From contig JBAZEU010000001.1 of the NCBI GenBank assembly GCA_041653755.1, positions 129,398 through 193,397 on the forward strand: 64,000 nt of DNA, given 5' to 3'. Under the pieces are notes generated by a model, which was given only the letters and a program-made list of their open reading frames with translations, made no database searches and was not told the origin of the DNA. The stretch's first letter is position 1. Each line of letters opens with the position of its first letter. Below are positions 6,449 to 62,302 of this stretch, piece after piece. The stretch is from Minisyncoccota bacterium (GTDB lineage Bacteria > Patescibacteriota > Minisyncoccia > UBA6257 > UBA9933). The position numbers were made by a program, and so were the translations under genes.

Positions 6449-8176
6449 ATGCCAACCCCAGCAGAAGAAATCAAGAATAAAATCGATATAGTTGATTTTA
6501 TTAAGAGTTATATTACTTTAAGGCCGGCAGGCAGGAATTTTAAGGCTAATTGTCCTTTTCATAAGGAAACTGCGCCTTCTTTTATTGTTTCGCCGGATAA
6601 ACAAATTTGGCATTGTTTCGGTTGTAATAAAGGAGGGGATGTTATTAAGTTTTTGATGGAGCACGATAATTTAGAATTTCATGAAGCACTGGGAATTTTA
6701 GCGGAGAAAGCCGGTATAGAATTAAAAAGAATCAATCCAGCCGAGCAAAAACAAATTGGGGTCTTATACGATATTTCCGAGAAAGCAAAAGAATTTTTCA
6801 AAAAAAATCTTGGGACATCGCCGGAAGCGATGAAATATTTAAAAGACAGGGGGTTGAAAGATAAAACGATTGAAGAATTTGAAATAGGTTTGGCGTCGAA
6901 TAATTTTGACGAACTAACTAAGCATCTCATGGGGCTTGGTTACAACGTCAATGATATTGAGAGAAGCGGTTTGTCAGCGAAGAGCAGGGGAGGAACTTAT
7001 GTTGATAAATTTAGAGGACGATTAATTTTTCCAATTTATAATCATTTCGGGAAAGTGGTTGCGTTCGGCGGAAGAATTTTGCCGTGGGCTGATTCTACGG
7101 GTGAGCTCGCAAAATATATCAATAGCTCTGATAGTTTAATTTATAATAAATCACGAATTCTTTATGGTTTTCATAAAACCAAGAGCCATATAAAAGACAG
7201 CGGTTTTGCCGTATTGGTGGAAGGTTATATGGACCTTTTGATGAGCTATCAGGATGGGGTAAAAAATGTAGTAGCGGTTTCGGGCACGGCTCTGACTCCG
7301 GACCAATTAAGAGCATTAAGGCGTTATACAGACCAATTGGTCTTTTGTTTTGACACTGACAGTGCCGGGCTTAATGCGGCTGAAAGATCGATCGACCTAG
7401 CTCTTTCTGGCGATTTTGACATTAAAATTTTAGTTTTAAAGGATTTCAAAGACCCGGCTGAAATGGTTTTTGGTTCTCCAGGTGTTTTGGTAAAAGCCGT
7501 TAAAGATGCTAAGCCAATTATGGAGTTCTACCTCGATTATTATAAACTTAGTGATTTTAATTCGGTTTCAGGAGCTGAAGTGCCGAATTTCAAAAAAATT
7601 CTTCGTTCGCTTTTGACAAAAATTAAAAATTTAACTAGTGCCGTTGAAAAATCTTTTTGGCTTAAACAACTTTCCAAAAGATTTAATATTGATGAGAATT
7701 CATTAATAGAAGAATTAGATAAAATAAAAACTGATAAAGAAGACAAGAAAGAGGGGATTATTGAAAAGCCATCTTTTTCTCGATGCGAGTTAATCAGTCA
7801 GCGGTTAATTGTTTTGGCGTTGATTAACAAATCATTTCAGTCAGAAATTGAAAATATCTTTGAATTTTTATCAAAGGATTATCAAAAAGTGTTTAATAAT
7901 TTGATTAACAAGCAAACCCTTGAGAATAAACAGCAAGAGGACTTGGCTAAATATATTTTATTAGTTTCCAGTGTCGGTTTGGAGAAATTAGACGAAGAAA
8001 AAACAAAAGATGAATTTGCGTCTCTCGTTACTGAAATAAAATTGGATTTTTTCAAGGGAAAGCGCGGAGCAATGGCACAAGCCATTAAAGAAGCGGAAAA
8101 GAGCGGTGATGAAGAAAAACTAAAGACCGTTCTTAGCCAGTTTGACGAAATTTCAAAAAAGATACAAAATAGATAG
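6449..8176 (+). CDS. dnaG: DNA primase
   Basis: CHC2 zinc finger (CPFHKETAPSF...HCFGCNKGGD) and Toprim region (VLVEGYMD, DTDSAG). Confidence 0.9.
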   Translation: MPTPAEEIKNKIDIVDFIKSYITLRPAGRNFKANCPFHKETAPSFIVSPDKQIWHCFGCNKGGDVIKFLMEHDNLEFHEALGILAEKAGIELKRINPAEQKQIGVLYDISEKAKEFFKKNLGTSPEAMKYLKDRGLKDKTIEEFEIGLASNNFDELTKHLMGLGYNVNDIERSGLSAKSRGGTYVDKFRGRLIFPIYNHFGKVVAFGGRILPWADSTGELAKYINSSDSLIYNKSRILYGFHKTKSHIKDSGFAVLVEGYMDLLMSYQDGVKNVVAVSGTALTPDQLRALRRYTDQLVFCFDTDSAGLNAAERSIDLALSGDFDIKILVLKDFKDPAEMVFGSPGVLVKAVKDAKPIMEFYLDYYKLSDFNSVSGAEVPNFKKILRSLLTKIKNLTSAVEKSFWLKQLSKRFNIDENSLIEELDKIKTDKEDKKEGIIEKPSFSRCELISQRLIVLALINKSFQSEIENIFEFLSKDYQKVFNNLINKQTLENKQQEDLAKYILLVSSVGLEKLDEEKTKDEFASLVTEIKLDFFKGKRGAMAQAIKEAEKSGDEEKLKTVLSQFDEISKKIQNR

Positions 8177-8220: not shown

Positions 8221-9459
8221 ATGAAAAAAAGAAAAAAACCATCTAAAAAAACCAAAAAGATTTCAAAGAAGAAAAAAGTTTCCGGCAAGAACAAGAAAAA
8301 AACTAAAAAAAATAAGCCGGCTAAAAAGAAAAAGGTTTCTAAGAAAGTCGTTAAGAAAGCCGCTAAAAAAGTTAGCGGTCCGAAAAAAAGATTCAAGTTC
8401 GACGAAGGGCTAATCGAAGAATTAATCAAGAAGGGGAGACCCCGCGGTTTTGTGACTGACACTGAAATTTTTTTCTATTTTCCGAATATCGAAGAAGACA
8501 TAGAGTTTTTAGAAGAATTATATAACCGCCTGGATAAAGCCAATATTAAAGTTATCGAAACTAATCAATTAATTCAGTCAGCCGAAGAAACTGAAAGAAT
8601 TGGCGAGGAAAGCTCTCTTGAGACACCCGATGCCGTTCAAATATATCTGAAAGAAATCGGCAAAACGCCGCTTTTAACCGGTGATGAGGAAAAAGAACTG
8701 GCGAAACGAGCCGAGAAAGACGACGAAGAAGCAAGGCAGAGATTGATTAAATCAAACCTTAGATTGGTGGTTTCCATCGCTAAGCGTTATGCCCGCCGAA
8801 GTCCGCAACTTTCAATATTGGATTTAATCCAGGAAGGGAACATCGGTTTAGCAAGAGCAGTTTCGAAATTTGATTATCGAAAAGGATTTAAATTTTCTAC
8901 TTATGCCACTTGGTGGATAAGACAGGCAATTACCAGAGCTTTAGCGGATCAATCTCGAACTATCAGAATTCCAGTTCATATGGTAGAGATTATTTCTAAG
9001 TATACTCAGACAAAAAGGCGTTTGTCGCAGGAGCTTGGCCGGGAACCATTACCAGAAGAAATATCTATTGAAATGGGCATAGAGGTCGATAAGATACACT
9101 ATATTCAAAAAATTTCCCAGGAAGTTCTTTCTTTGGAATCGCCAATCAGCGAAGACGATGAGGATTCAACTCTTCAAGAATTCATCAGAGATGAGAAAAG
9201 CTTAACTCCTGTTCAATTAGCCGATCAGACTCTTTTAAGAGAAAAAATTAAAGAAGTGTTGGTTGATTTGGCGGAGAGAGAACAGGAAATTTTGAAAATG
9301 AGATTTGGATTAACAGATGGAATTACGCACACCTTGGAAGAGGTAGGCAAAAAATTCAACGTTACCAGAGAAAGAATTCGTCAGATAGAAGCCAAGGCCT
9401 TAGAAAAAATCAGAGGGCACCAAAAGTCAAAGATTTTAGAAGAATATAAAGAGTCGTAA
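8221..9459 (+). CDS. rpoD: RNA polymerase sigma factor (sigma-70 family) with poly-Lys N-terminus
   Basis: Region 2-4 motifs ([41 protein letters not shown]; [21 protein letters not shown]); the dnaG-rpoD pairing is classic. Confidence 0.9.
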
Positions 9460-15181: not shown

Positions 15182-15634
15182 ATGGGAAAGAAAAAAGTTA
15201 TCAAACAAACCGAAGCAGAGGTTTTAAAAGAAAAAGACGTTGTTGATGCAGCTAGCGTTGCGAAGAAATCAACTAAAGCAGGCAAAAAGATTGAGACCTG
15301 TCGAGTTTATGTTAATGCTTCTTATAACAACACTCTTATGACAATGGTTGATAAAAATGGCGGTGTTTTAGGTTGGGCATCAGCCGGTTCAATGGGTTTT
15401 TCCGGTCCGAAAAAATCAACTCCTTTTGCCGCTTCAAAAGTTGCCGAGGTAATAAACGAAAAAATGAGACAGCTTGAGCCGCAGACGGTGGAAATTATCG
15501 TTAAGGGCATCGGTAGCGGTCGTGATTCCGCAGTCAGATCAATTGCAGGCGGCGGATTTAATATAGTTTCAATCAAAGACGTAACTCCAATTCCACACAA
15601 TGGTCCGAGACCTAGAAAAGTAAGAAGAGTTTAA
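15182..15634 (+). CDS. rpsK: 30S ribosomal protein S11
   Basis: NNTLMTMVD...GWASAGSMGFSGPKKSTPFAA. Confidence 0.9.
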   Translation: MGKKKVIKQTEAEVLKEKDVVDAASVAKKSTKAGKKIETCRVYVNASYNNTLMTMVDKNGGVLGWASAGSMGFSGPKKSTPFAASKVAEVINEKMRQLEPQTVEIIVKGIGSGRDSAVRSIAGGGFNIVSIKDVTPIPHNGPRPRKVRRV

Positions 15635-22627: not shown

Positions 22628-23605
22628 TTAATAAAGAAAATTTTTAACTAATTTTTTGGCCTCTTTATAATTTTTTATCCATTTGATTATTTTGTCTTTT
22701 TTGAACCACGTCATTTGGCGTTTGGAAAATTGCCAGGTTTTTTGATTCAAAATTTCAATCATTTTTTCTTTAGTGATTAATTCGCGAAGGTAATAAGAAA
22801 TATACCTGTATTCTAAGCCCAATTCATCTAATCGTTTCCATGTTAATCCTCGTTGGTATAACTTTTTAATCTCTTCTATCATCCCTTGTTTTAGCCGTTT
22901 TTCTAGCCGGATTTTAATCAATTTTTGTAGTTCTTCTTTTGGTTTTTTTATCCCGATAATTAAAACATCAAACGTTGCTGTACGCTGATTTAAATCTGAT
23001 TTATGCGGATTTGGTTTGCCGGTGATTAAAACAATCTCTAACGCTCTGATTAATCGGCGTTTATTATATTTATCAATGTTTTTTGCTCTTTGCGGGTCAA
23101 GTTTTTTTAGTTGCTTGAAAAGTTCTTCAATGGATTTTTTCTCCAGTTTTTCTCTTAATTTTTTCTGTGGCGGAACTTCCGGAATTTGCCAGTTGTAAAT
23201 TAAAGAATAAATATAAAAAGCCGTACCGCCGCAGATTATTGGGATTTTACCTTTGGCTATGATTTTTTTTATAGCTTTTTTTGCCAGTTTTTGGTATTGC
23301 GCAACCGTGAATCTATTCTTGGGCGAAGCTATGTCTAGGAGATGGTGACGAATGCCTTGATGATAGAATTCTGAACTCTGAATTCTTAATTTTGAATTAA
23401 GGTCTTTCGTGACCTTTCCGGAGCCAAGATCAAGGCCTTTATAAACTTGTCTTGAATCAGCCGAAATAATTTCAATCCCGTTTATCCCGAATGTTTTTCG
23501 GGCCTGCCCGGAACTTAAGTGGAGGGCAATCTTTACAGCCAAGCCCGATTTTCCCGAGGCAGTAGGACCAAGAACAACGATTATTTTGTCTTTTTTATTC
23601 ATCAT
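22628..23605 (-). CDS. miaA: tRNA dimethylallyltransferase
   Basis: P-loop VVLGPTASGKS; IPT family layout. Confidence 0.85.
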   Translation of the reverse strand: MMNKKDKIIVVLGPTASGKSGLAVKIALHLSSGQARKTFGINGIEIISADSRQVYKGLDLGSGKVTKDLNSKLRIQSSEFYHQGIRHHLLDIASPKNRFTVAQYQKLAKKAIKKIIAKGKIPIICGGTAFYIYSLIYNWQIPEVPPQKKLREKLEKKSIEELFKQLKKLDPQRAKNIDKYNKRRLIRALEIVLITGKPNPHKSDLNQRTATFDVLIIGIKKPKEELQKLIKIRLEKRLKQGMIEEIKKLYQRGLTWKRLDELGLEYRYISYYLRELITKEKMIEILNQKTWQFSKRQMTWFKKDKIIKWIKNYKEAKKLVKNFLY

Positions 23606-29665: not shown

Positions 29666-29817
29666 AATTGTATGTAGACTTGCCCCGTTAGATTTGAGCA
29701 GAGCGAAAATCTATGCGGGGTGAACGAATTTCATAATAAGTTTAATAAAAAAGATAAGGATATTATATAATATTAAATGACTTTAATATATCGAGCTAAA
29801 GCTCGCTATACAAACCC

Positions 29818-30540
29818 GTGATTAACAAAAAATCGAAAAAACCCAAATACATTATTGGTATAGATGAGGTTGGTAGGGGACCGTTGGCCGGACCAGTTGT
29901 GGTAGCGGCTTTAGCGCTCCCACAAAATTCCTGCCTGTCCGGCAGGCAGGCAAAATTAAGAATTAAAAATGCAGAGTTGAGAACTACGGAAAAATCTAAA
30001 AATTCTGAATTCTTAATTCTGCATTCTAAATTAGCGAAGCTTAGGGACTCTAAAAAACTTTCACCGCAACAAAGAGAAAAATGGTTTGATTGGGTAAAAG
30101 AAAATAAAATTCTATACGCAGTTGCATCAGTTTCGCCAAGAATAATTGATAAAATTAATATATCGAACGCCGCAAACTTAGCAGCCCAAAACGCTCTCGA
30201 GCGTTTAATTAAGAATGCCGTGCCTGCCGGCAGGCAGGCAGAATTCAGAATTAAGAATTGTAAGGTTTTCCTTGACGGCGGACTGTATCTAAAAAGATTC
30301 AAGATTCAAGATCTAAGATGCAAGACAGTTATTCGGGGTGACGAAAAAATTCCAGCGATCTCTTTGGCTTCAATTGTTGCAAAAGTCACGCGTGATAAAA
30401 AAATGAAGGAATTTCATAAAAAATATCCTCGTTATGGTTTTGATAAGCATAAGGGCTATGGGACGAAATATCATATCAGAGCCATCAAAAGAAATGGTGT
30501 TTCAAAAATACATCGAAAAAGTTTTTTGAAAAACTTTTGA
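29818..30540 (+). CDS. rnhB: ribonuclease HII carrying two in-frame repeat-derived insertions
   Basis: GIDEVGRGPLAGPV...DSKKLS...KGDEKIPAISLASIVAKVTRD...YGFDKHKGYGTKYH; about 35 aa and about 12 aa of extra sequence at the repeat sites. Confidence 0.85.
   Translation: MINKKSKKPKYIIGIDEVGRGPLAGPVVVAALALPQNSCLSGRQAKLRIKNAELRTTEKSKNSEFLILHSKLAKLRDSKKLSPQQREKWFDWVKENKILYAVASVSPRIIDKINISNAANLAAQNALERLIKNAVPAGRQAEFRIKNCKVFLDGGLYLKRFKIQDLRCKTVIRGDEKIPAISLASIVAKVTRDKKMKEFHKKYPRYGFDKHKGYGTKYHIRAIKRNGVSKIHRKSFLKNF
29929..30040. repeat. MITE-like element: GC hairpin (CCTGCCTG-TCCGG-CAGGCAGG) plus inverted AGAATTA-heptad arrays, in-frame inside rnhB
   Basis: Left array AAAATTAAGAATTAAAAATGCAGAG and inverted right array CTGAATTCTTAATTCTGCATTCTAAATTAGC resemble the arrays flanking the 4HB gene at 59021/59399. 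Confidence 0.55.
30217..30262. repeat. second, solo copy of the GC palindrome (CCTGCCGGCAGG) plus heptad array (AGAATTCAGAATTAAGAATTG) inside rnhB
   Basis: Same composite architecture as 29929..30040, left half only. Confidence 0.5.
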
Positions 30541-30551
30541 GATTTGACTAT

Positions 30552-30580
30552 TTGACATAATCGATTGACTTCAGTATTAT
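30552..30580 (+). promoter_or_regulatory. promoter (TTGACA-17-TATTAT)
   Basis: Consensus -35 with a near-consensus -10, upstream of the 30626 ORF. Confidence 0.45.
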
Positions 30581-30625
30581 TAAGATAATTTTTAGCAACT
30601 TTAATTTAAAATAACGGAGGGGAAA

Positions 30626-30994
30626 ATGAACAGGGCAAAAGGCATTATTAGAACGATCGGCATAGGAAGGTTTGAAGAAATTTGTAATAGTATCGGTCTT
30701 GACGGGAAAGGTCTTGATCGGAAGCAAAGACATGTTTTGCGAAGAATTTTTAGACATTACGACAATATTAATGAAAGCAAAGAGCGTTATCCGAGCAGTG
30801 AAGAAGTGGAGAAAGGCAAGAAAAAATTTTTCGAGTATGAAGTAATACTGCATAAAGTTTCTAACTCTGAAGCAAAAATACTTTGCTCAGCTATCTCAAT
30901 GATTCAAAAAGAACGAGACAAGAAAGTTAGACAAGAATTACCCGCCCAACGAAACTCTGTTGGGCGGTTTTTTTTGTTGCTTGTTTATTGCTGA
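30626..30994 (+). CDS. hypothetical protein
   Basis: GGAGG RBS; the ORF runs through the terminator hairpin at its 3' end. Confidence 0.45.
   Translation: MNRAKGIIRTIGIGRFEEICNSIGLDGKGLDRKQRHVLRRIFRHYDNINESKERYPSSEEVEKGKKKFFEYEVILHKVSNSEAKILCSAISMIQKERDKKVRQELPAQRNSVGRFFLLLVYC
30941..30976 (+). terminator. intrinsic terminator
   Basis: CCGCCCAAC...GTTGGGCGG followed by T8. Confidence 0.65.
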
Positions 30995-38086: not shown

Positions 38087-38594
38087 GAAGAGCAAACCAC
38101 AAAAACAAAAGGAAATGGATTCGGGAGAAAAGCTTTTGAAAGAAAGCGAGAATTTGATTTTCGTTAATTTTAGCGGAGCGACAATGGAGGATTTAAAGAG
38201 CTTAAGGGCGGACTTAAAAAAACAGAAGGATAGTTTTAAGGTTGTAAAGAAAAGATTATTGAAAATTGTTTTACAAAAACTTGGAGTTGATTTCGATCCG
38301 ACTCAATTTGATGCGCAAGTTGGGACTATTTTTGTAACCGATAAGGATATAGCTGTTGCAGCTAACGCGGTCCATAAATTATTTAAAGCAAAACAAAGAG
38401 CTAAGGCAGAATTTAATATTCTAGGCGGGTATGATATGGGAAATAAAGTTTTTATTGACGAGTCAAGAATGAAATTGATCGGACAATTACCGGCAAAAGA
38501 AGTTGTATTGGCACAGGTGTTGGGAATGATCGCATCGCCGATACAGTCAATGTTATATATATTAAATGAAAGGTCGAAACAGACGAAATCCTAA
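38085..38594 (+). CDS. rplJ: 50S ribosomal protein L10
   Basis: L10-like N-terminus (IFVNFSGATMEDLKSLRADLKK...FKVVKKRLL) and position directly upstream of rplL. Confidence 0.8.
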   Translation: MKSKPQKQKEMDSGEKLLKESENLIFVNFSGATMEDLKSLRADLKKQKDSFKVVKKRLLKIVLQKLGVDFDPTQFDAQVGTIFVTDKDIAVAANAVHKLFKAKQRAKAEFNILGGYDMGNKVFIDESRMKLIGQLPAKEVVLAQVLGMIASPIQSMLYILNERSKQTKS

Positions 38595-38709
38595 TTTCTA
38601 AGCTCTAATTTCTAAACAAATTCAAATTATCAAAATCCAAAGAGTTTAGAATTTAGTTATTTAGACATTGTTTAGGATTTAGGTATTAGGATTTAGAATT
38701 TCAAAATAT
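38595..38709 (+). repeat. 115-bp TAGGATTT-rich intergenic element (rplJ-rplL spacer)
   Basis: Both ends closely match the reverse complement of 52762..52876 (TAATTTCTAAGCTCTAATTTCTAAA; TGTTTAGGATTTAGGTATTAGGATTTAGAATTT). Confidence 0.5.
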
Positions 38710-52761: not shown

Positions 52762-52876
52762 GCCTTTATAAAATCCTAAGTCCTAATATCTAAATCCTAA
52801 ACAAATCTTAATTACCGAATGACCAAAACCCGTTTTTAGAACATTTGAATTTTGGCTATTATTTAGAAATTAGAGT
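52762..52876 (-). repeat. TAGGATTT-rich intergenic element (inverted copy of 38595..38709), directly upstream of the dnaB start
   Basis: Reverse complement matches the ends of the rplJ-rplL spacer element. Confidence 0.5.
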
Positions 52877-54325
52877 TTAGAAATTAGAAATTTTTAATAA
52901 TAGTGGTCCTAGCGGTGTATCTTCTACACTATATCCTAACTTTTCTATTTTATTTCTCAATAGGTCAGCTGGGATAAACTGTTTATCCTTTCTTAATAAA
53001 TCACGCTTTTTTGCCAAATCCTTCACTTTTTTAGGTATTTTAAGCAGTTCCAATCTAATGCCTAATATGTCTAATTTAGCTTTAATTAGCTTGGTTATTG
53101 CTTTAGCTTGGTCTTTATCAAATTGCCAGATTTGATTTTGCCAGGAAGAAATCATGTCAAAAATTACCGACAAGGCCTTTGGAGTATTAAAATCGTTTTC
53201 TAAGGCTTCGGTGAAATTGCTGTCAAGAACTTCAATTAATTTATTTATTTCGAAAGAAGAACTTTTTTTATTGTTGGCGAGAATAATCAAATGCAATTTT
53301 CCTAAAAATTCTTTTATATTCTGAAGAGAATTTTTTGTTTGAAGAATTAGTTCGTCGGTGTAATTAATGGGGGATCGGTAATGGGATGATAAAATCAGCA
53401 TTCTTAAAACAGCCGGAGAATTATTTTTTAGGAAATCAGAGATTGAAATAAAATTTTTCAAACTTTTGGACATTTTTTTGTCATCAACCAAAAGAAAACC
53501 GGTGTGCATCCAAATTTTCACAAAAGGCTTTTTACCGGAAGCAGATTCCATCTGGGCGATTTCTGATTCGTGGTGAGGAAATTTTAAATCCATTCCGCCT
53601 CCATGAATATCGTATTGAGGACCAAAAAACTTCTCGGCAATAGCCGTGTCTTCAATATGCCAGCCGGGGCGGCCCCAGCCCCAAGGCGATTGCCACATTG
53701 GTTCGCCATCTAAAATTTGAAATTTTGATTTTTGATTTTGTTTAGAGTTTAGGGTTTGGGATTTAGGATTTGATTTCTTCCAGAGGGAGAAATCCAGCGG
53801 ATCTTTTTTCTGCGGATCTGGTTCAATACGCCAGCCGGGCCTCAATTGGTCTAGCGATTGCTTGGAAAGCTTGCCATAACTCTTAGCCTTTTTTACTTCA
53901 AAATATATTCCATTATCGGTTTCATAAGCAAAATATTTCTTTAGAAGGGTAGCAATTTGTTTTTGAATTTGTGGGATGTGATCGGTTGCCCGGGCATATT
54001 TATCTACTGAATCAATGCCAATTTTCTTCATTATTTTTTTGTATTCGGCCTCAAAGAACTTGGCTAATTCTAAAGGATTTTTATTGGTTTCTTTCGCGCG
54101 TTCAATAATTTTATCGTCGACATCGGTAATGTTTTGGAGGTAAAAAACCTTTATTTTTTGCGACCTTAAAAAACGAACAAAAGTGTCAAAAACAATATAG
54201 GTTCTGGCGTGACCAATATGAGGAAAATCATAAACAGTTGGTCCGCAGACGAATAATCTTAAAAAGCCCTTTTTGGGGAGTTCAAGGACTTGTTTTTTAT
54301 TAGAAAGAGTGTCGAGAATTTCCAT
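52877..54325 (-). CDS. cysS: cysteine--tRNA ligase with in-frame low-complexity insertion
   Basis: HIGH (HIGHARTY) and KMSKS motifs; 18-aa insert SNPKSQTLNSKQNQKSKFQIL encoded by repeat-like DNA. Confidence 0.9.
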   Translation of the reverse strand: MEILDTLSNKKQVLELPKKGFLRLFVCGPTVYDFPHIGHARTYIVFDTFVRFLRSQKIKVFYLQNITDVDDKIIERAKETNKNPLELAKFFEAEYKKIMKKIGIDSVDKYARATDHIPQIQKQIATLLKKYFAYETDNGIYFEVKKAKSYGKLSKQSLDQLRPGWRIEPDPQKKDPLDFSLWKKSNPKSQTLNSKQNQKSKFQILDGEPMWQSPWGWGRPGWHIEDTAIAEKFFGPQYDIHGGGMDLKFPHHESEIAQMESASGKKPFVKIWMHTGFLLVDDKKMSKSLKNFISISDFLKNNSPAVLRMLILSSHYRSPINYTDELILQTKNSLQNIKEFLGKLHLIILANNKKSSSFEINKLIEVLDSNFTEALENDFNTPKALSVIFDMISSWQNQIWQFDKDQAKAITKLIKAKLDILGIRLELLKIPKKVKDLAKKRDLLRKDKQFIPADLLRNKIEKLGYSVEDTPLGPLLLKISNF

Positions 54326-59020: not shown

Positions 59021-59056
59021 GGTTAATTAAGAATTAAGAATGCAGAATTAAGAAAG
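59021..59056. repeat. left terminal array of AGAATTA heptads (TAATTA-AGAATTA-AGAATGC-AGAATTA-AGAAAG) preceded by hairpin TTAACC-TGTAG-GGTTAA
   Basis: Inverted partner at 59399..59434. Confidence 0.55.
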
Positions 59057-59059
59057 ATT

Positions 59060-59401
59060 ATGGAAAAGGAAATTTATAAAAGATCCTGCGATTTTGCTAT
59101 TTCAGTGATAAGATTTTTGAAGAAAATTAACATAGATTCGGCAAATAGGGTAATAGCAGAGCAGCTAATTAGATCAATAACTTCAATATCGGCTAATCTT
59201 GCAGAAGGAAGCGCAGCTGTTTCTAAGAAAGAATTTATTAACTATGTCGGTATCGCAAGAAAATCGGCGGTGGAAACAGTGCATTGGCTGAAATTTTCGC
59301 ATCAAATTATTAATAGGGAAGAGATCAAGGAATTTATAAACGAAGGTAGTCAGATAGTAAGCATTTTATCAAAAATAGTTATTAATTCTAAAAACCGCTA
59401 A
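59060..59401 (+). CDS. four-helix-bundle protein (TIGR02436; 23S rRNA intervening-sequence protein family)
   Basis: ISANLAEGS...KEFINYVGIARKSAVETVHWL signature. Confidence 0.7.
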   Translation: MEKEIYKRSCDFAISVIRFLKKINIDSANRVIAEQLIRSITSISANLAEGSAAVSKKEFINYVGIARKSAVETVHWLKFSHQIINREEIKEFINEGSQIVSILSKIVINSKNR

Positions 59402-59434
59402 TTCTGAATTCTTAATTTTGAATTCTTAATTAGC
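59399..59434. repeat. right terminal inverted heptad array (TAATTCTGAATTCTTAATTTTGAATTCTTAATTAGC) followed by hairpin AGCAAAAT-TAT-ATTTTGCT
   Basis: Reverse complement is GCTAATTA-AGAATTC-AAAATTA-AGAATTC-AGAATTA. Confidence 0.55.
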
Positions 59435-59450
59435 AAAATTATATTTTGCT

Positions 59451-60578
59451 ATGAAGGATTATTACAAGGTTCTTGGCGTTGATAAAAATTCTTCGCCAGA
59501 AGATATAAAAAAGGCCTATCGAAAATTGGCTCATCAGTTTCATCCGCATAAAGCCGGTAAAGATGAGAAAAAATTTAAAGAGTTAAACGAAAAACTCAAG
59601 GAAATAAACGAGGCCTATAATATTCTTTCTAACGCCGAGAAAAAAGCGCAATATGACAAATTCGGACAGGTCTTTTCCGCCCAAGGCGGACCAGCCTCGG
59701 GCTGGGAAGGCGTACCATTTTCTGATTTTGGTTTTTCCGCCGATGGCGGATTTGATGTCGGAGGAGTATCTGATTTAGGCGATATTTTCAACGCTATTTT
59801 TGAAGGAATGGGCGTTAGGCAGAAAAGACGAACCTATAAACGCGGTTCAGATCTGGAATTTACGCAGGAAGTTTCCTTAGAGGAATCATTCAGGGGCATT
59901 GAAAAAACTTTAAAATTTAAAACATTTTTGAAATGCAGCAAATGCAAAGGCAAGGGCCACGACGAAAAAGCCGGTTTTGAAAAATGTACGGTTTGCGGCG
60001 GCAGAGGGGAAATTAGGGAAACAAAAAATACTTTTTTTGGAAGTTTTGCCCAGGTAAAGACGTGTGAAAAATGTTTTGGCACAGGACAAGTTCCGAATAA
60101 AGTTTGCGAAATCTGCAAAGGAGCCGGAAGAATCGCCGGAGAAAGAGAAGTAAAAATTCAAATTCTTCCGGGCGTCAGAGACGGACAACTTATCAAAATT
60201 GCTGGAATGGGTGAAGCCGGTGAAAGACAAACCGCAGAAGGAGATTTGTATGTTAGAATTAAAGTCAGACCGCATTCGGTTTTTGAAAGAGCAGGGGATA
60301 ATTTAAAAATTAAAAAAGACGTTAAGTTGGTTGATTTATTATTATCAAAAAAGTTAGAGATTCCAACTATTTCTGGAAACAAGCTGTCTATTGAAATTCC
60401 GGCTGGATTTGATATAAAACAAGATTTGAGGATAGGCGGAGAAGGAATGCCAATTTTTGGAAGTTATGGAAGAGGGGATTTGTTGGTTGAGTTGATGGTA
60501 AAGACGCCGAGAAAATTAAACGAAAAAACAAAGAAGATTCTAGAAGATCTTGGAAAAACAATGGACAATGAACGATAA
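59451..60578 (+). CDS. dnaJ: molecular chaperone DnaJ
   Basis: J domain (HPHK), G/F region, four CxxCxGxG zinc-finger repeats. Confidence 0.9.
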   Translation: MKDYYKVLGVDKNSSPEDIKKAYRKLAHQFHPHKAGKDEKKFKELNEKLKEINEAYNILSNAEKKAQYDKFGQVFSAQGGPASGWEGVPFSDFGFSADGGFDVGGVSDLGDIFNAIFEGMGVRQKRRTYKRGSDLEFTQEVSLEESFRGIEKTLKFKTFLKCSKCKGKGHDEKAGFEKCTVCGGRGEIRETKNTFFGSFAQVKTCEKCFGTGQVPNKVCEICKGAGRIAGEREVKIQILPGVRDGQLIKIAGMGEAGERQTAEGDLYVRIKVRPHSVFERAGDNLKIKKDVKLVDLLLSKKLEIPTISGNKLSIEIPAGFDIKQDLRIGGEGMPIFGSYGRGDLLVELMVKTPRKLNEKTKKILEDLGKTMDNER

Positions 60579-60581
60579 ACT

Positions 60582-60953
60582 ATGAACAAAGCGATTTTCA
60601 GATTTTTAGAGTGGCAAGTATATAAAGATGCAAAGAGTTTTAGACAAAAGGTAAAATCTTTAATTAATAAGAAATTCCCAAAGGAAGAAAGGTATAAACT
60701 TATTGATCAGATAGAAAGAGCTGCAAATTCAGTATGTTTGAATATTGCTGAAGGATCTAATAAACTTTCCGATATTGAATTAAGCCATTATCTTAATATC
60801 GCTTCTACTTCTATAGAGGAAGTTATTTCTGGGCTTGATTTGGCTAAAGATGATGGTTATATTACAGAAAAGGAATTTGAAGATTTTTGTCAGATGGCAG
60901 AAGAAGTTAGTAAACAACTTGTCGCCTTCGGCAAATTTGCACGCAATAGATAG
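60582..60953 (+). CDS. four-helix-bundle protein (TIGR02436 family), second paralog
   Basis: LNIAEGSNK...SHYLNIASTSIEEV; 3-nt gap after dnaJ. Confidence 0.65.
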   Translation: MNKAIFRFLEWQVYKDAKSFRQKVKSLINKKFPKEERYKLIDQIERAANSVCLNIAEGSNKLSDIELSHYLNIASTSIEEVISGLDLAKDDGYITEKEFEDFCQMAEEVSKQLVAFGKFARNR

Positions 60954-61011
60954 AAGTAGTTTGTTTCGTGTTCATCGTTCATCGTTTATATAGTTTTTGG
61001 TCGTAAAAAAC

Positions 61012-61084
61012 GCCCCGTTAGCTCAGTTGGTAGAGCAGCTCCCTTTTAAGGAGAAGGTCGAAGGTTCGAATCCTTCACGGGGTA
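61012..61084 (+). tRNA. tRNA-Lys (anticodon UUU)
   Basis: GCCCCGTTAGCTCAGTTGGTAGAGC...anticodon loop CTTTTAA...GGTTCGAATCC; acceptor 3' strand ACGGGGT. Confidence 0.8.
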
Positions 61085-61130
61085 CAAGGTCTGTAAAATA
61101 GTACACAAGAGCAGGTTTACCAGTCTTGGA
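61080..61130 (+). repeat. 47-bp direct repeat, copy 1, beginning in the tRNA-Lys 3' end (attL-like)
   Basis: GGTACAAGGTCTGTAAAATAGTACACAAGAGCAGGTTTACCAGTCTTG; one mismatch versus 62253..62302. Confidence 0.6.
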
Positions 61131-62252: not shown

Positions 62253-62302
62253 GGTACAAGGTCTGTAAAATAGCACACAAGAGCAGGTTTACCAGTCTTG
62301 AC
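62253..62302 (+). repeat. 47-bp direct repeat, copy 2 (attR-like), preceded by a degenerate tRNA T-arm/acceptor remnant
   Basis: GGTACAAGGTCTGTAAAATAGCACACAAGAGCAGGTTTACCAGTCTTG; upstream CCGGTTCCAATCAAGTCGCAAGTGAGGTACA resembles GGTTCGAATCC...GGGGTACA. Confidence 0.6.

Follow-up and report, generated by a model that had tools for sequence, protein, structure and literature searches.

Heptad arrays at three loops of a Patescibacteria RNase HII gene and a GC-rich palindrome nested in two of them

The DNA analysed here, referred to as the window, is a 64,000-nt stretch of contig JBAZEU010000001.1 from a Minisyncoccota bacterium. It contains an intact rnhB gene, coding for RNase HII, that holds in-frame repeat DNA at three positions designated sites A, B and C. 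The repeats are of two kinds, one nested within the other: AT-rich tandem arrays of 7-nt units (heptads), present at all three sites, and a GC-rich palindrome with the canonical 20-nt form CCTGCCTGCCGGCAGGCAGG, present once at site A and once at site B within the arrays. The reading that we favour, with a probability of roughly 70%, is that these two repeat tiers have settled in three permissive loops of a functional rnhB, and that the inserts would be translated as tolerated, poorly ordered loops.

Organization of the rnhB inserts

The gene and the components of its inserts are listed below.

29818-30540, plus strand: rnhB, RNase HII, 240 aa, GTG start, intact open reading frame (ORF); catalytic and substrate motifs D16 E17 (DEVGRG), G19-R20-G21, D77-S78-K79, D153 (FLDGG), D175 (GDE) and G213-Y214-G215
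29923-29929, plus strand: site A, first unit (heptad CAAAATT) of the left array, 5' of palindrome A, which splits the array (direct reading)
29930-29950, no strand assigned: palindrome A, CCTGCCTGTCCGGCAGGCAGG, 21 nt, the canonical 20-mer with a T in the loop, within peptide SCLSGRQA
29951-29983, plus strand: left arm of hairpin A, CAAAATT AAGAATT AAAAATG CAGAGTT GAGAA, encoding KLRIKNAELR (Tandem Repeats Finder period 7)
29998-30035, plus strand: right, inverted arm of hairpin A, AAAAATT CTGAATT CTTAATT CTGCATT CTAAATT AGC, encoding KNSEFLILHSKLA
30205-30217, plus strand: site B, upstream part of array B, TTAATT AAGAATG, encoding LIKN (direct reading)
30218-30238, no strand assigned: palindrome B, CCGTGCCTGCCGGCAGGCAGG, 21 nt, the canonical 20-mer with a G after the initial CC, within AVPAGRQA
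30239-30259, plus strand: downstream part of array B, CAGAATT CAGAATT AAGAATT, encoding EFRIKNC (period 7, 3.0 copies, 92% matches)
30291-30326, plus strand: site C, array C, AAGATTC AAGATTC AAGATCT AAGATGC AAGAC (AAGATTC x4.6), encoding KRFKIQDLRCK

Both 21-mers are situated at heptad junctions, palindrome A between two CAAAATT units and palindrome B (with its core CCTGCCGGCAGG at 30223-30234) between AAGAATG and CAGAATT. An earlier reading made from the letters alone, hereafter the original prediction, had described two in-frame segments absent from canonical RNase HII. Both are real where it placed them and correspond to extra residues relative to the Thermotoga maritima enzyme (3o3g), although the site C array (30291-30326) was overlooked and the affected loops number three. 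The strings and positions it quoted for palindromes, arrays and spacer are all correct, including a left heptad array at 29951-29976 followed by a 21-nt spacer before the right array, and its ORF translation is exact.

Tandem Repeats Finder reports period 7 within rnhB at 29952, 30001, 30239 and 30294. The window as a whole has 12 period-7 segments, as compared to 0-2 for the other periods from 2 to 13, five for period 14 (twice 7), and 0.43 period-7 segments after block shuffles; three of the 12 lie within the 723 nt of rnhB. Both of the two occurrences of the pattern CCTGCC..GGCAGG in the window fall in rnhB, against 0.02 expected for the window. A further candidate element, CCGGCAGGCAGG at 6524-6535, was rejected, as it belongs to the ordinary coding sequence for the zinc-finger region of dnaG (LRPAGRNFKANCPFH).

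Region A is predicted to fold into a 9-bp GC hairpin, formed by palindrome A, and a 16-bp heptad hairpin (z = -5.5 for the region). In the latter (z = -4.6) positions 29968-29983 pair with 30010-30025, and the array with its inverted copy constitutes a unit of ~95 nt. Two orthologues have a predicted site A hairpin too (L081, z = -3.9; L083, z = -4.0). Region B folds weakly (z = -2.2). Both palindromes have a terminator-like score on the antisense strand, and only there. Apart from tRNAs, no Rfam family reaches its gathering score across the window, and none matches 29700-30700 at E = 1.

The RNase HII core and its loops

The rnhB product matches Pfam PF01351 (RNase_HII) with 113 bits (cut-off 25.8) and, in a PDB sequence search, the T. 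maritima RNase HII (3o3g; phmmer E = 2.6e-31). In an alignment of 42 sequences the catalytic columns and those of the GRG, DSK and GY substrate motifs are invariant. Its nearest relatives in the databases carry the annotation ribonuclease HII and are assigned to the Patescibacteria group, Candidatus Wolfebacteria or Paceibacterota; one is 98% identical and the others 52-71%, which places the window in a bacterium of the candidate phyla radiation.

An AlphaFold2 model built on the 42-sequence alignment has a confident core, and Foldseek matches it with probability 1.00 to 3o3f, 3o3g and 7uwe (TM-score 0.80 on target for 7uwe_C). Relative to 3o3g the extra residues are ~36-66, ~131-143 and about six more at ~157-165. 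The model has a predicted local distance difference test (pLDDT) score below 50 at residues 38-70 and 136-142, and no regular structure at 154-166. Each insert falls between secondary-structure elements of the predicted fold: the downstream part of array B directly precedes the strand carrying the catalytic D153, and array C sits between the D153 and D175 strands, where the alignment to 3o3g has a gap of ~6 residues. The placement of the inserts in loops in the original prediction is therefore borne out by the model, together with their low pLDDT.

Two further assemblies contain the same or nearly the same gene; it is therefore not an assembly artefact. There are no differences in an independent assembly (L085, 6635 nt), and another (L084) is 98.8% identical with both palindromes present. 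The 11 differences from L084 are distributed unevenly. All seven outside the arrays are synonymous, and all four that are non-synonymous lie within arrays B and C (codons 142, 143, 161 and 168), with two amino acid changes in the downstream part of array B and two in array C. Purifying selection thus acts on the RNase HII core but not on the peptides encoded by the arrays. Six of the seven synonymous differences are packed into 31 nt at 30360-30390 (codons 181-191), a cluster that may be a short recombination tract.

Filled and empty palindrome sites

The GC palindrome is missing from 115 of the 120 listed RnhB homologues, and from the rnhB genes of all three close orthologues read at the DNA level (L081, L083 and L209). 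In L209 (protein P0014) site A is empty, with CCACGAAATTC joined directly to AAAATTAAGAATT, as compared to CCACAAAATTC, CTGCCTGTCCGGCAGGCAGGC and AAAATTAAGAATT in succession in the window, a difference of exactly 21 nt. Relative to L081 and L083, site B of the window is longer by a net 21 nt. Palindrome B was considered as a local copy of palindrome A, and this was rejected; array B is orthologous to the palindrome-free arrays of L081, L083 and L209.

Among the same 120 homologues, three further rnhB lineages carry a copy of their own at site A or B, again at junctions of array units:

P0084 (L206): CCTGCCTGCCGGTAGGCATGG, 21 nt
P0099 (L207): CCATACCTACCGGCAGGCAAG, 21 nt
P0006 (L208): CCATGCCTACCGGCAGGCAGG, 21 nt

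The last of these has an empty counterpart in a gene of ~90% nucleotide identity (L245). The L208 palindrome stands between two TAAAACT units and accounts for exactly 21 nt, and the target is neither duplicated nor shortened. All five copies in rnhB are 21-nt variants, and so multiples of 3 nt, but the position of the extra base and the internal reading frame vary among the lineages, which argues for independent events. The strain-lineage-specific parts of the rnhB inserts are, by these comparisons, the two palindromes, which were added after the arrays.

The same rnhB loops appear to be occupied by other families of small GC hairpins as well. In a metagenome-assembled genome labelled Saccharibacteria (L001; 10100-10480), a decayed palindrome, CCTGCCTGCCGGTAAGCAGAC, is present at site A, two further GC hairpins, TCCCGACGTAAAGTCGGGA and CCCCGACCAAAGCGTCGGGG, at site B, and an AATTCTN array at site C. 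Further short peptide inserts of GC type are present in RnhB loops of P0012 and P0032 (site A) and of P0100, P0066 and P0018 (sites A and B); read at the protein level, such inserts include FFCQRQIPGGS inside the right array, DPAGICQRQ and VDIQCDRDECPQ.

Heptad arrays in rnhB orthologues

The arrays have a different distribution. The three close orthologues (64-74% amino acid identity) all contain AAGAATT-type heptad DNA at sites A and B, for example AAATTAAGAATTAAGAATTCAGAATTAAGAATT, encoding KLRIKN.EL and IKN..FRIKNC, and in L081 and L083 array B runs as a continuous TTAATTAAGAATTCAGAATT with no interruption. Corresponding array peptides are visible in most of the homologues in the 42-sequence alignment. 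Because arrays A and B are common to the three close orthologues as repeat DNA, the AAGAATT-type arrays are, on this evidence, older than the strain.

Two expectations of the original prediction hold in part. Alignment of orthologues was expected to reveal both segments as lineage-specific insertions, and this is so of the palindromes, which most homologues lack, but not of the AAGAATT arrays shared with L081, L083 and L209. Similarly, the repeat family was taken to be recently active, which fits the strain-lineage specificity of the palindromes but not arrays A and B, present in all three close orthologues. A further possibility that it raised, that orthologues would have homologous peptides without repeat-like DNA, was not found; the peptides of the orthologues are encoded by heptad-repeat DNA.

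More distant rnhB orthologues have unrelated heptads at the same three loops (AAAGTTN and CTAACGA in L004, GATTTAN in L055, AAATTTG in L008), and most of the more distant Patescibacteria genes have no arrays and code for 195-210 aa. In the 115 of 120 listed homologues with all four motifs, the loops span 20-56 aa from GRG to DSKK and 13-37 aa from DG to KGD. Site C is polymorphic within the ~90% identical pair, L208 having an array there and L245 lacking one. The differing heptads and lengths at the same loops, the site C polymorphism and the occurrence of the same kind of arrays in non-coding DNA point to DNA-level repeats turning over at permissive loops, and neither to one recent transposition nor to selection for a peptide. 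In a perfect AAGAATT array every frame contains TAA, and the arrays within genes put GCA or TCA in place of TAA at every third unit.

Dispersal of the palindrome

A scan of metagenomes yielded at least 120 stretches with the palindrome, mostly of low GC content, with several contig names suggestive of groundwater or activated sludge. The numbers that follow refer to the matches listed. At the unique sites the unit is 20 nt in 102 of 111 cases and 21 nt in nine. Complementarity ends exactly at the 20-nt edge of this perfect palindrome, giving it sharp boundaries, and at the 111 sites there are no conserved flanking bases, no extension of the hairpin and no target-site duplication. Strong period-7 flanks are present at 12 of 134 sites versus 1.1% of control positions, an enrichment of ~8-fold, and other periods are unremarkable.

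Palindromes are located mainly outside long ORFs (84 of 114 evaluable sites, versus 32% of controls) and less often inside them (30 of 114, versus 68%). Those within ORFs mostly read (L/M)PAGRQ, and by motif reading their hosts are LeuRS-, HisRS-, MurB- and RluA-like. Many of the intergenic copies are followed by a T-run, an observation biased by the search pattern, which required an A/T-rich flank.

The 20-mer is also present in 35 virus-classified stretches in IMG/VR, most of them 54-68% GC. In six of these (L210, L239, L233, L231, L218 and L215; 54-67% GC) it is nested in heptad arrays, the heptads around the IMG/VR palindromes including GGTGAGA, TTCGTAT, TCTCGTC and CCAATGN; the pairing of array and palindrome is thus not confined to AT-rich Patescibacteria genomes. 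BLAST gave no match for the palindrome in cultured phage records, and only chance-level matches, in high-GC taxa, in plasmid records. Within the window it is absent from both four-helix-bundle (4HB) gene cassettes described below and from the other ten arrays.

In virus-classified contigs, copies also lie inside tRNA genes or tRNA-like contexts. In L234 (2239-2330) the palindrome occupies the variable-arm position of a 92-nt tRNA-Met called by ARAGORN; L211 (~8570-8660) has a near-identical tRNA-like context, and L241 (~495-560) has the palindrome in a D-loop-like context, neither of them called by ARAGORN.

Clustering of the ORFs around the 120 listed loci gives housekeeping families and small GIY-YIG-like ORFs. 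The latter (with a YFYVYILQS-type N-terminus), which recur more often near the palindromes than any other family, are found at eight loci among L086-L205, including L097, at a median distance of 1.9 kb, and may reflect the commonness of such ORFs in these genomes. Full-text literature searches returned no description of the palindrome or of LPAGRQ/PAGRQG peptides, and further searches, covering heptanucleotide repeats as well as insertions in Patescibacteria (candidate phyla radiation, CPR) that are palindromic or in frame, turned up no description of the palindrome or of the arrays. The palindrome family is apparently undescribed.

Heptad arrays elsewhere in the window

Heptad arrays are found in several other positions in the window, with units that include AAGAATT, AAGATTC and TTAGGAT. 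The principal features are:

59060-59401: 4HB gene (23S_rRNA_IVP, PF05635) in cassette 59024-59431, with inverted heptad arrays either side
60582-60953: second 4HB gene, in cassette 60558-60989, likewise with inverted heptad arrays either side
38586-38706: gene-less inverted-heptad hairpin in the ribosomal L10-L7/L12 spacer (z = -3.6)
52766-52892: gene-less inverted-heptad hairpin in the dnaB-cysS spacer; the L081 spacer (15186-15290) also has arrays
23364-23399, minus strand: in-frame heptad array in miaA, encoding LNSKLRIQSSEF, a ~12-aa insert relative to Bacillus halodurans MiaA (2qgn)
53708-53772, minus strand: in-frame heptad array in cysS, giving ~19 extra residues, KSQTLNSKQNQKSKFQILDG, directly before the PWGxGRPGWHIE motif

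Inverted heptad arrays bracket all three 4HB genes seen (the third in L158, ~8759-9107), with a different heptad in each cassette: AAGAATT, ACGATGA and TAAAGTT. In layout the cassettes resemble an rRNA intervening sequence, here situated between protein genes. The rnhB arrays are 82-89% identical over 31-38 nt to the termini of cassette 59024-59431, the best match (89% over 38 nt) being the right arm of hairpin A with the array (59400-59437) that follows the 4HB gene on its 3' side; complementarity between the arms is 82%. The description of insertion A in the original prediction as a miniature version of the 4HB cassette termini is correct in that its array DNA is of the same kind (38 nt, 89%), but the palindrome is in neither cassette of the window.

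The L081 genome, with arrays in its dnaB-cysS spacer, has an RnhB 64% identical to that of the window; the cysS array is missing from its cysS orthologue. The tolerance of such inserts by rnhB, which had been thought unusual, is not so: miaA and cysS in the window have arrays, three other rnhB lineages contain the palindrome, and LeuRS-, HisRS- and MurB-like ORFs do too. A second miaA insert lies near the N-terminus (~23478-23510; 11 aa, SSGQARKTFGI), where the DNA holds a hairpin, CCCGAATGTTTTTCGGG, beside CCTGCCCGGA; it may be a decayed GC element.

The neighbours of rnhB are a 1066-aa minus-strand ORF read as dnaE, an unassigned 122-aa ORF, and ORFs read as groES and groEL, the L085 counterparts of which match Cpn10 and Cpn60. 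Elsewhere, a 48-nt direct repeat, 98% identical (61081-61128 and 62253-62300), starts at the 3' end of a tRNA (61012-61084) and flanks ~1.2 kb with two small ORFs; the arrangement looks like a small integrated element between its att sites.

Relation to known repeat families

The palindrome and arrays share features with several known systems. Rickettsia palindromic elements (RPEs) measure ~100-150 bp, are divided into defined families and are located in frame in housekeeping genes, where they are translated as additional peptides (Ogata et al. 2000, 2002, summarised in PMC10969869). The repeats described here are similarly palindromic DNA in frame in unrelated housekeeping genes, at positions compatible with the fold, in a bacterial host with a reduced genome. 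They differ in having two nested tiers with units of 21 nt and ~95 nt, the palindrome being 5-7 times smaller, in belonging to no RPE family, and in their hosts, which are Patescibacteria and other uncultured lineages, whereas RPEs are confined to Rickettsia.

Repetitive extragenic palindromic (REP) sequences are 20-40 nt palindromes whose superfamilies are marked by a GTAG or CGTC tag and which are associated with REP-associated tyrosine transposases (RAYTs; Di Nocera et al. 2013, PMC3733652). Like REPs and the bacterial interspersed mosaic elements built from them, the palindrome is dispersed, GC-rich, mostly extragenic, often terminator-like downstream of genes and occasionally intragenic, and it is inserted without target duplication, as single-strand hairpin transposition would leave it. 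Unlike REPs, it has no GTAG or CGTC tag, is a perfect rather than an imperfect palindrome and prefers heptad arrays; its copy number per genome is apparently low (2 in 64 kb), and no RAYT-like gene was seen among the ORFs within ~5 kb of the 120 listed copies. The palindrome with its arrays is a member of neither the RPEs nor the REPs.

Cyanobacterial STRR sequences, reported by Mazel et al. in 1990, are said to be heptanucleotide tandem arrays, such as CCCCAGT, in intergenic positions. The arrays described here resemble them in being dispersed tandem arrays of 7-nt units, often in inverted pairs capable of forming hairpins. They differ in having AT-rich heptads that vary by locus, in their location inside coding regions and around 4HB genes, and in their non-cyanobacterial host.

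Small dispersed repeats (SDRs), reportedly described by Elhai et al. in 2008, are said to be 21-27 nt, with mobility inferred from filled and empty sites, and we know of no enzyme for them. The SDRs of the Nostocaceae insert into other repeats (SDR5 into HIP1), and nothing SDR-like has been reported outside the Nostocaceae (PMC5861425). The palindrome resembles SDRs, compared here by description only, in its very small size, its filled and empty orthologous sites (the 21-nt pair of L208 and L245) and its nesting, in this case in heptad arrays; it differs in being a perfect palindrome, often within ORFs, and in its hosts.

The GC clusters of yeast mitochondria are GC-rich palindromes of 30-50 bp in an AT-rich genome, optional between strains and occasionally in frame (var1), and to our knowledge have no link to heptad arrays. 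They are comparable as short GC-rich palindromes scattered in AT-rich DNA and sometimes in frame in a protein gene, but those described here are bacterial and not organellar, shorter and unrelated in sequence. Finally, the 4HB cassettes resemble 23S rRNA intervening sequences (PF05635) in having a 4HB ORF enclosed by inverted repeats able to form a long stem, but they are located between protein genes, and the rnhB inserts have no ORF of their own.

Discussion

We propose that the two tiers of repeats arise by different processes. In the first tier, slippage and replacement would alter both the length and the sequence of the AT-rich 7-nt arrays, and within genes only stop-free, in-frame versions would survive. 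In the second, the 20-nt palindrome has inserted into arrays at heptad junctions, in rnhB once in A and once in B, with bases of the target neither duplicated nor lost. The palindrome family is scattered through low-GC metagenome contigs, presumably largely of Patescibacteria, and through higher-GC virus-classified contigs, with arrays as preferred targets. A trans-acting activity presumably moves it, and a single-strand hairpin transposition of the type of IS200/IS605 elements and RAYTs is put forward as a conjecture because insertion without duplication is its expected product. Once in the gene, the inserts would be read through by the ribosome and tolerated, probably neutrally, as loop peptides.

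Several points weigh against this reading. Translation of the inserts is presumed, and RNase HII may be dispensable in this organism, making its tolerance of inserts weaker evidence than that of an essential gene. Palindrome copy number is low, with two in the 64-kb window and both in rnhB, and no transposase family recurs within ~5 kb of the palindromes in the ORF clustering of the 120 listed loci. Canonical 20-nt copies inside ORFs imply that one extra base is supplied from elsewhere to keep the frame, and some of the copies with T-runs may be kept as terminators and not be purely selfish. The AAGAATT arrays shared among orthologues may represent either one old insertion or repeated colonisation. 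Lastly, conservation at synonymous sites is higher in arrays than in the core (0.69-0.72 versus 0.42-0.43) against L081 and L083, an excess that is absent in comparisons with L209 and L206; the result is suggestive only, and codon bias may contribute to it in part.

The original prediction regarded each insertion, palindrome and arrays together, as a gene-less derivative of a 4HB cassette, akin to a miniature inverted-repeat transposable element (MITE) and recently transposed as one unit. It is in agreement with this that the rnhB arrays and the termini of the 4HB cassette at 59024-59431 are of one heptad family, that insertion A has the inverted-repeat architecture of a cassette, and that inverted heptad arrays bracket three of three 4HB genes. 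Nonetheless, the palindrome is at neither 4HB cassette nor at other arrays, orthologues have arrays without it, and the presence of arrays A and B in three close orthologues speaks against their recent joint arrival with the palindromes. The MITE-like designation does not hold on other grounds. No target-site duplication is seen at the 111 listed palindrome sites, in the L208/L245 pair or at the 4HB cassette ends, and in the 64-kb window such arrays flank no gene other than 4HB, with no transposase as an autonomous parent. For PF05635 itself no transposase activity is known, and the family is described as functionally uncharacterised (PMC11270868). As to terminal inverted repeats, the arms of insertion A have a 16-bp stem, arm length and sequence vary between orthologues, with variable heptads at the same loops, and no fixed ends can be drawn. 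Movement as a single unit is for these reasons quite improbable. A role in cis is also unlikely, with the inserts kept for antisense pausing or termination, as an RNase III or mRNA-stability site, or as a binding site, for example of the 4HB protein. The stable fold of region A (z = -5.5) and its predicted counterparts in L081 and L083, the terminator-like antisense score of both palindromes, the T-runs after many metagenome copies, the synonymous-site excess in arrays against two orthologues and the array hairpins in the dnaB-cysS spacer of two genomes are all consistent with such a role. It accounts poorly for the many Patescibacteria orthologues that have no arrays or unrelated heptads, for the lack of the palindrome in 115 of 120 listed homologues, for the weak fold of region B (z = -2.2) and the lack of an Rfam match, and for array changes between strains that are non-synonymous with no obvious preservation of pairing.

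The inserts could also be adaptive, lineage-specific loop extensions, forming for instance a partner surface, with the repeat DNA a by-product of codon use in peptides rich in K, N, I, L and R. The peptides KLRIKNAEL, KNSxFLILNSKLAKL and IKNxxxRIKNC do recur in many aligned homologues, and an AT-rich codon bias favours AAA, TTA, AGA, ATT and AAT. A 7-residue peptide repeat predicts a 21-nt period, however, and the period observed is 7 nt; arrays are present in non-coding DNA as well, the same loops have unrelated peptides and heptads, or none, in different lineages, all amino acid changes between close strains are in the arrays, the inserts have low pLDDT, and the (L/M)PAGRQ peptide is found in unrelated proteins. 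This explanation is largely refuted and very improbable. Least probable of all, to the point of being hardly credible, is an artefact, with the palindromes as chimeras formed by the assembly at inverted repeats, or a decaying rnhB. Inverted repeats can break or mis-join short-read assemblies, and several metagenome matches are near contig ends, but an identical independent assembly and a second at 98.8% identity contain the gene, the ORF is intact with all catalytic residues and has seven synonymous and no non-synonymous differences outside the arrays, and all five copies within rnhB are exact multiples of 3 nt.

Colonisation of permissive RNase HII loops by two nested tiers of repeats is the reading that we retain. 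A more ambitious extension of it is offered tentatively, as a possibility on which we would not rely: that CCTGCCTGCCGGCAGGCAGG is an undescribed, ultra-small (20/21-nt) mobile element that homes to heptad arrays and moves with no duplication of its target, that the arrays are made or maintained by 4HB (Avd-like) cassettes, and that the two form a two-tier system. As part of the same speculative proposal, this system might be spread over Patescibacteria, higher-GC uncultured lineages and viral-classified contigs, and be tolerated, as an (L/M)PAGRQ loop, in aminoacyl-tRNA synthetase-like, cell-wall and repair genes, and in tRNA genes too.

Rickettsia is the textbook case of translated selfish palindromic DNA in housekeeping genes. 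The repeats described here would add the Patescibacteria (CPR) as a second clear case of translated selfish DNA, with a far smaller unit. They would explain part of the low-complexity loops and the length variation of Patescibacteria proteins, in which motifs such as (L/M)PAGRQ, KLRIKNAEL and KNSEFLILNS should be treated as repeat-derived by annotation and alignment pipelines. The three insertion-accepting loops of RNase HII mapped by these natural insertions may be of use in protein engineering. Finally, the 21-nt filled and empty site, the sharp 20-nt edges and the preference for arrays would provide a handle on how the smallest mobile sequences move, a question that has stood since REP and SDR repeats were described.

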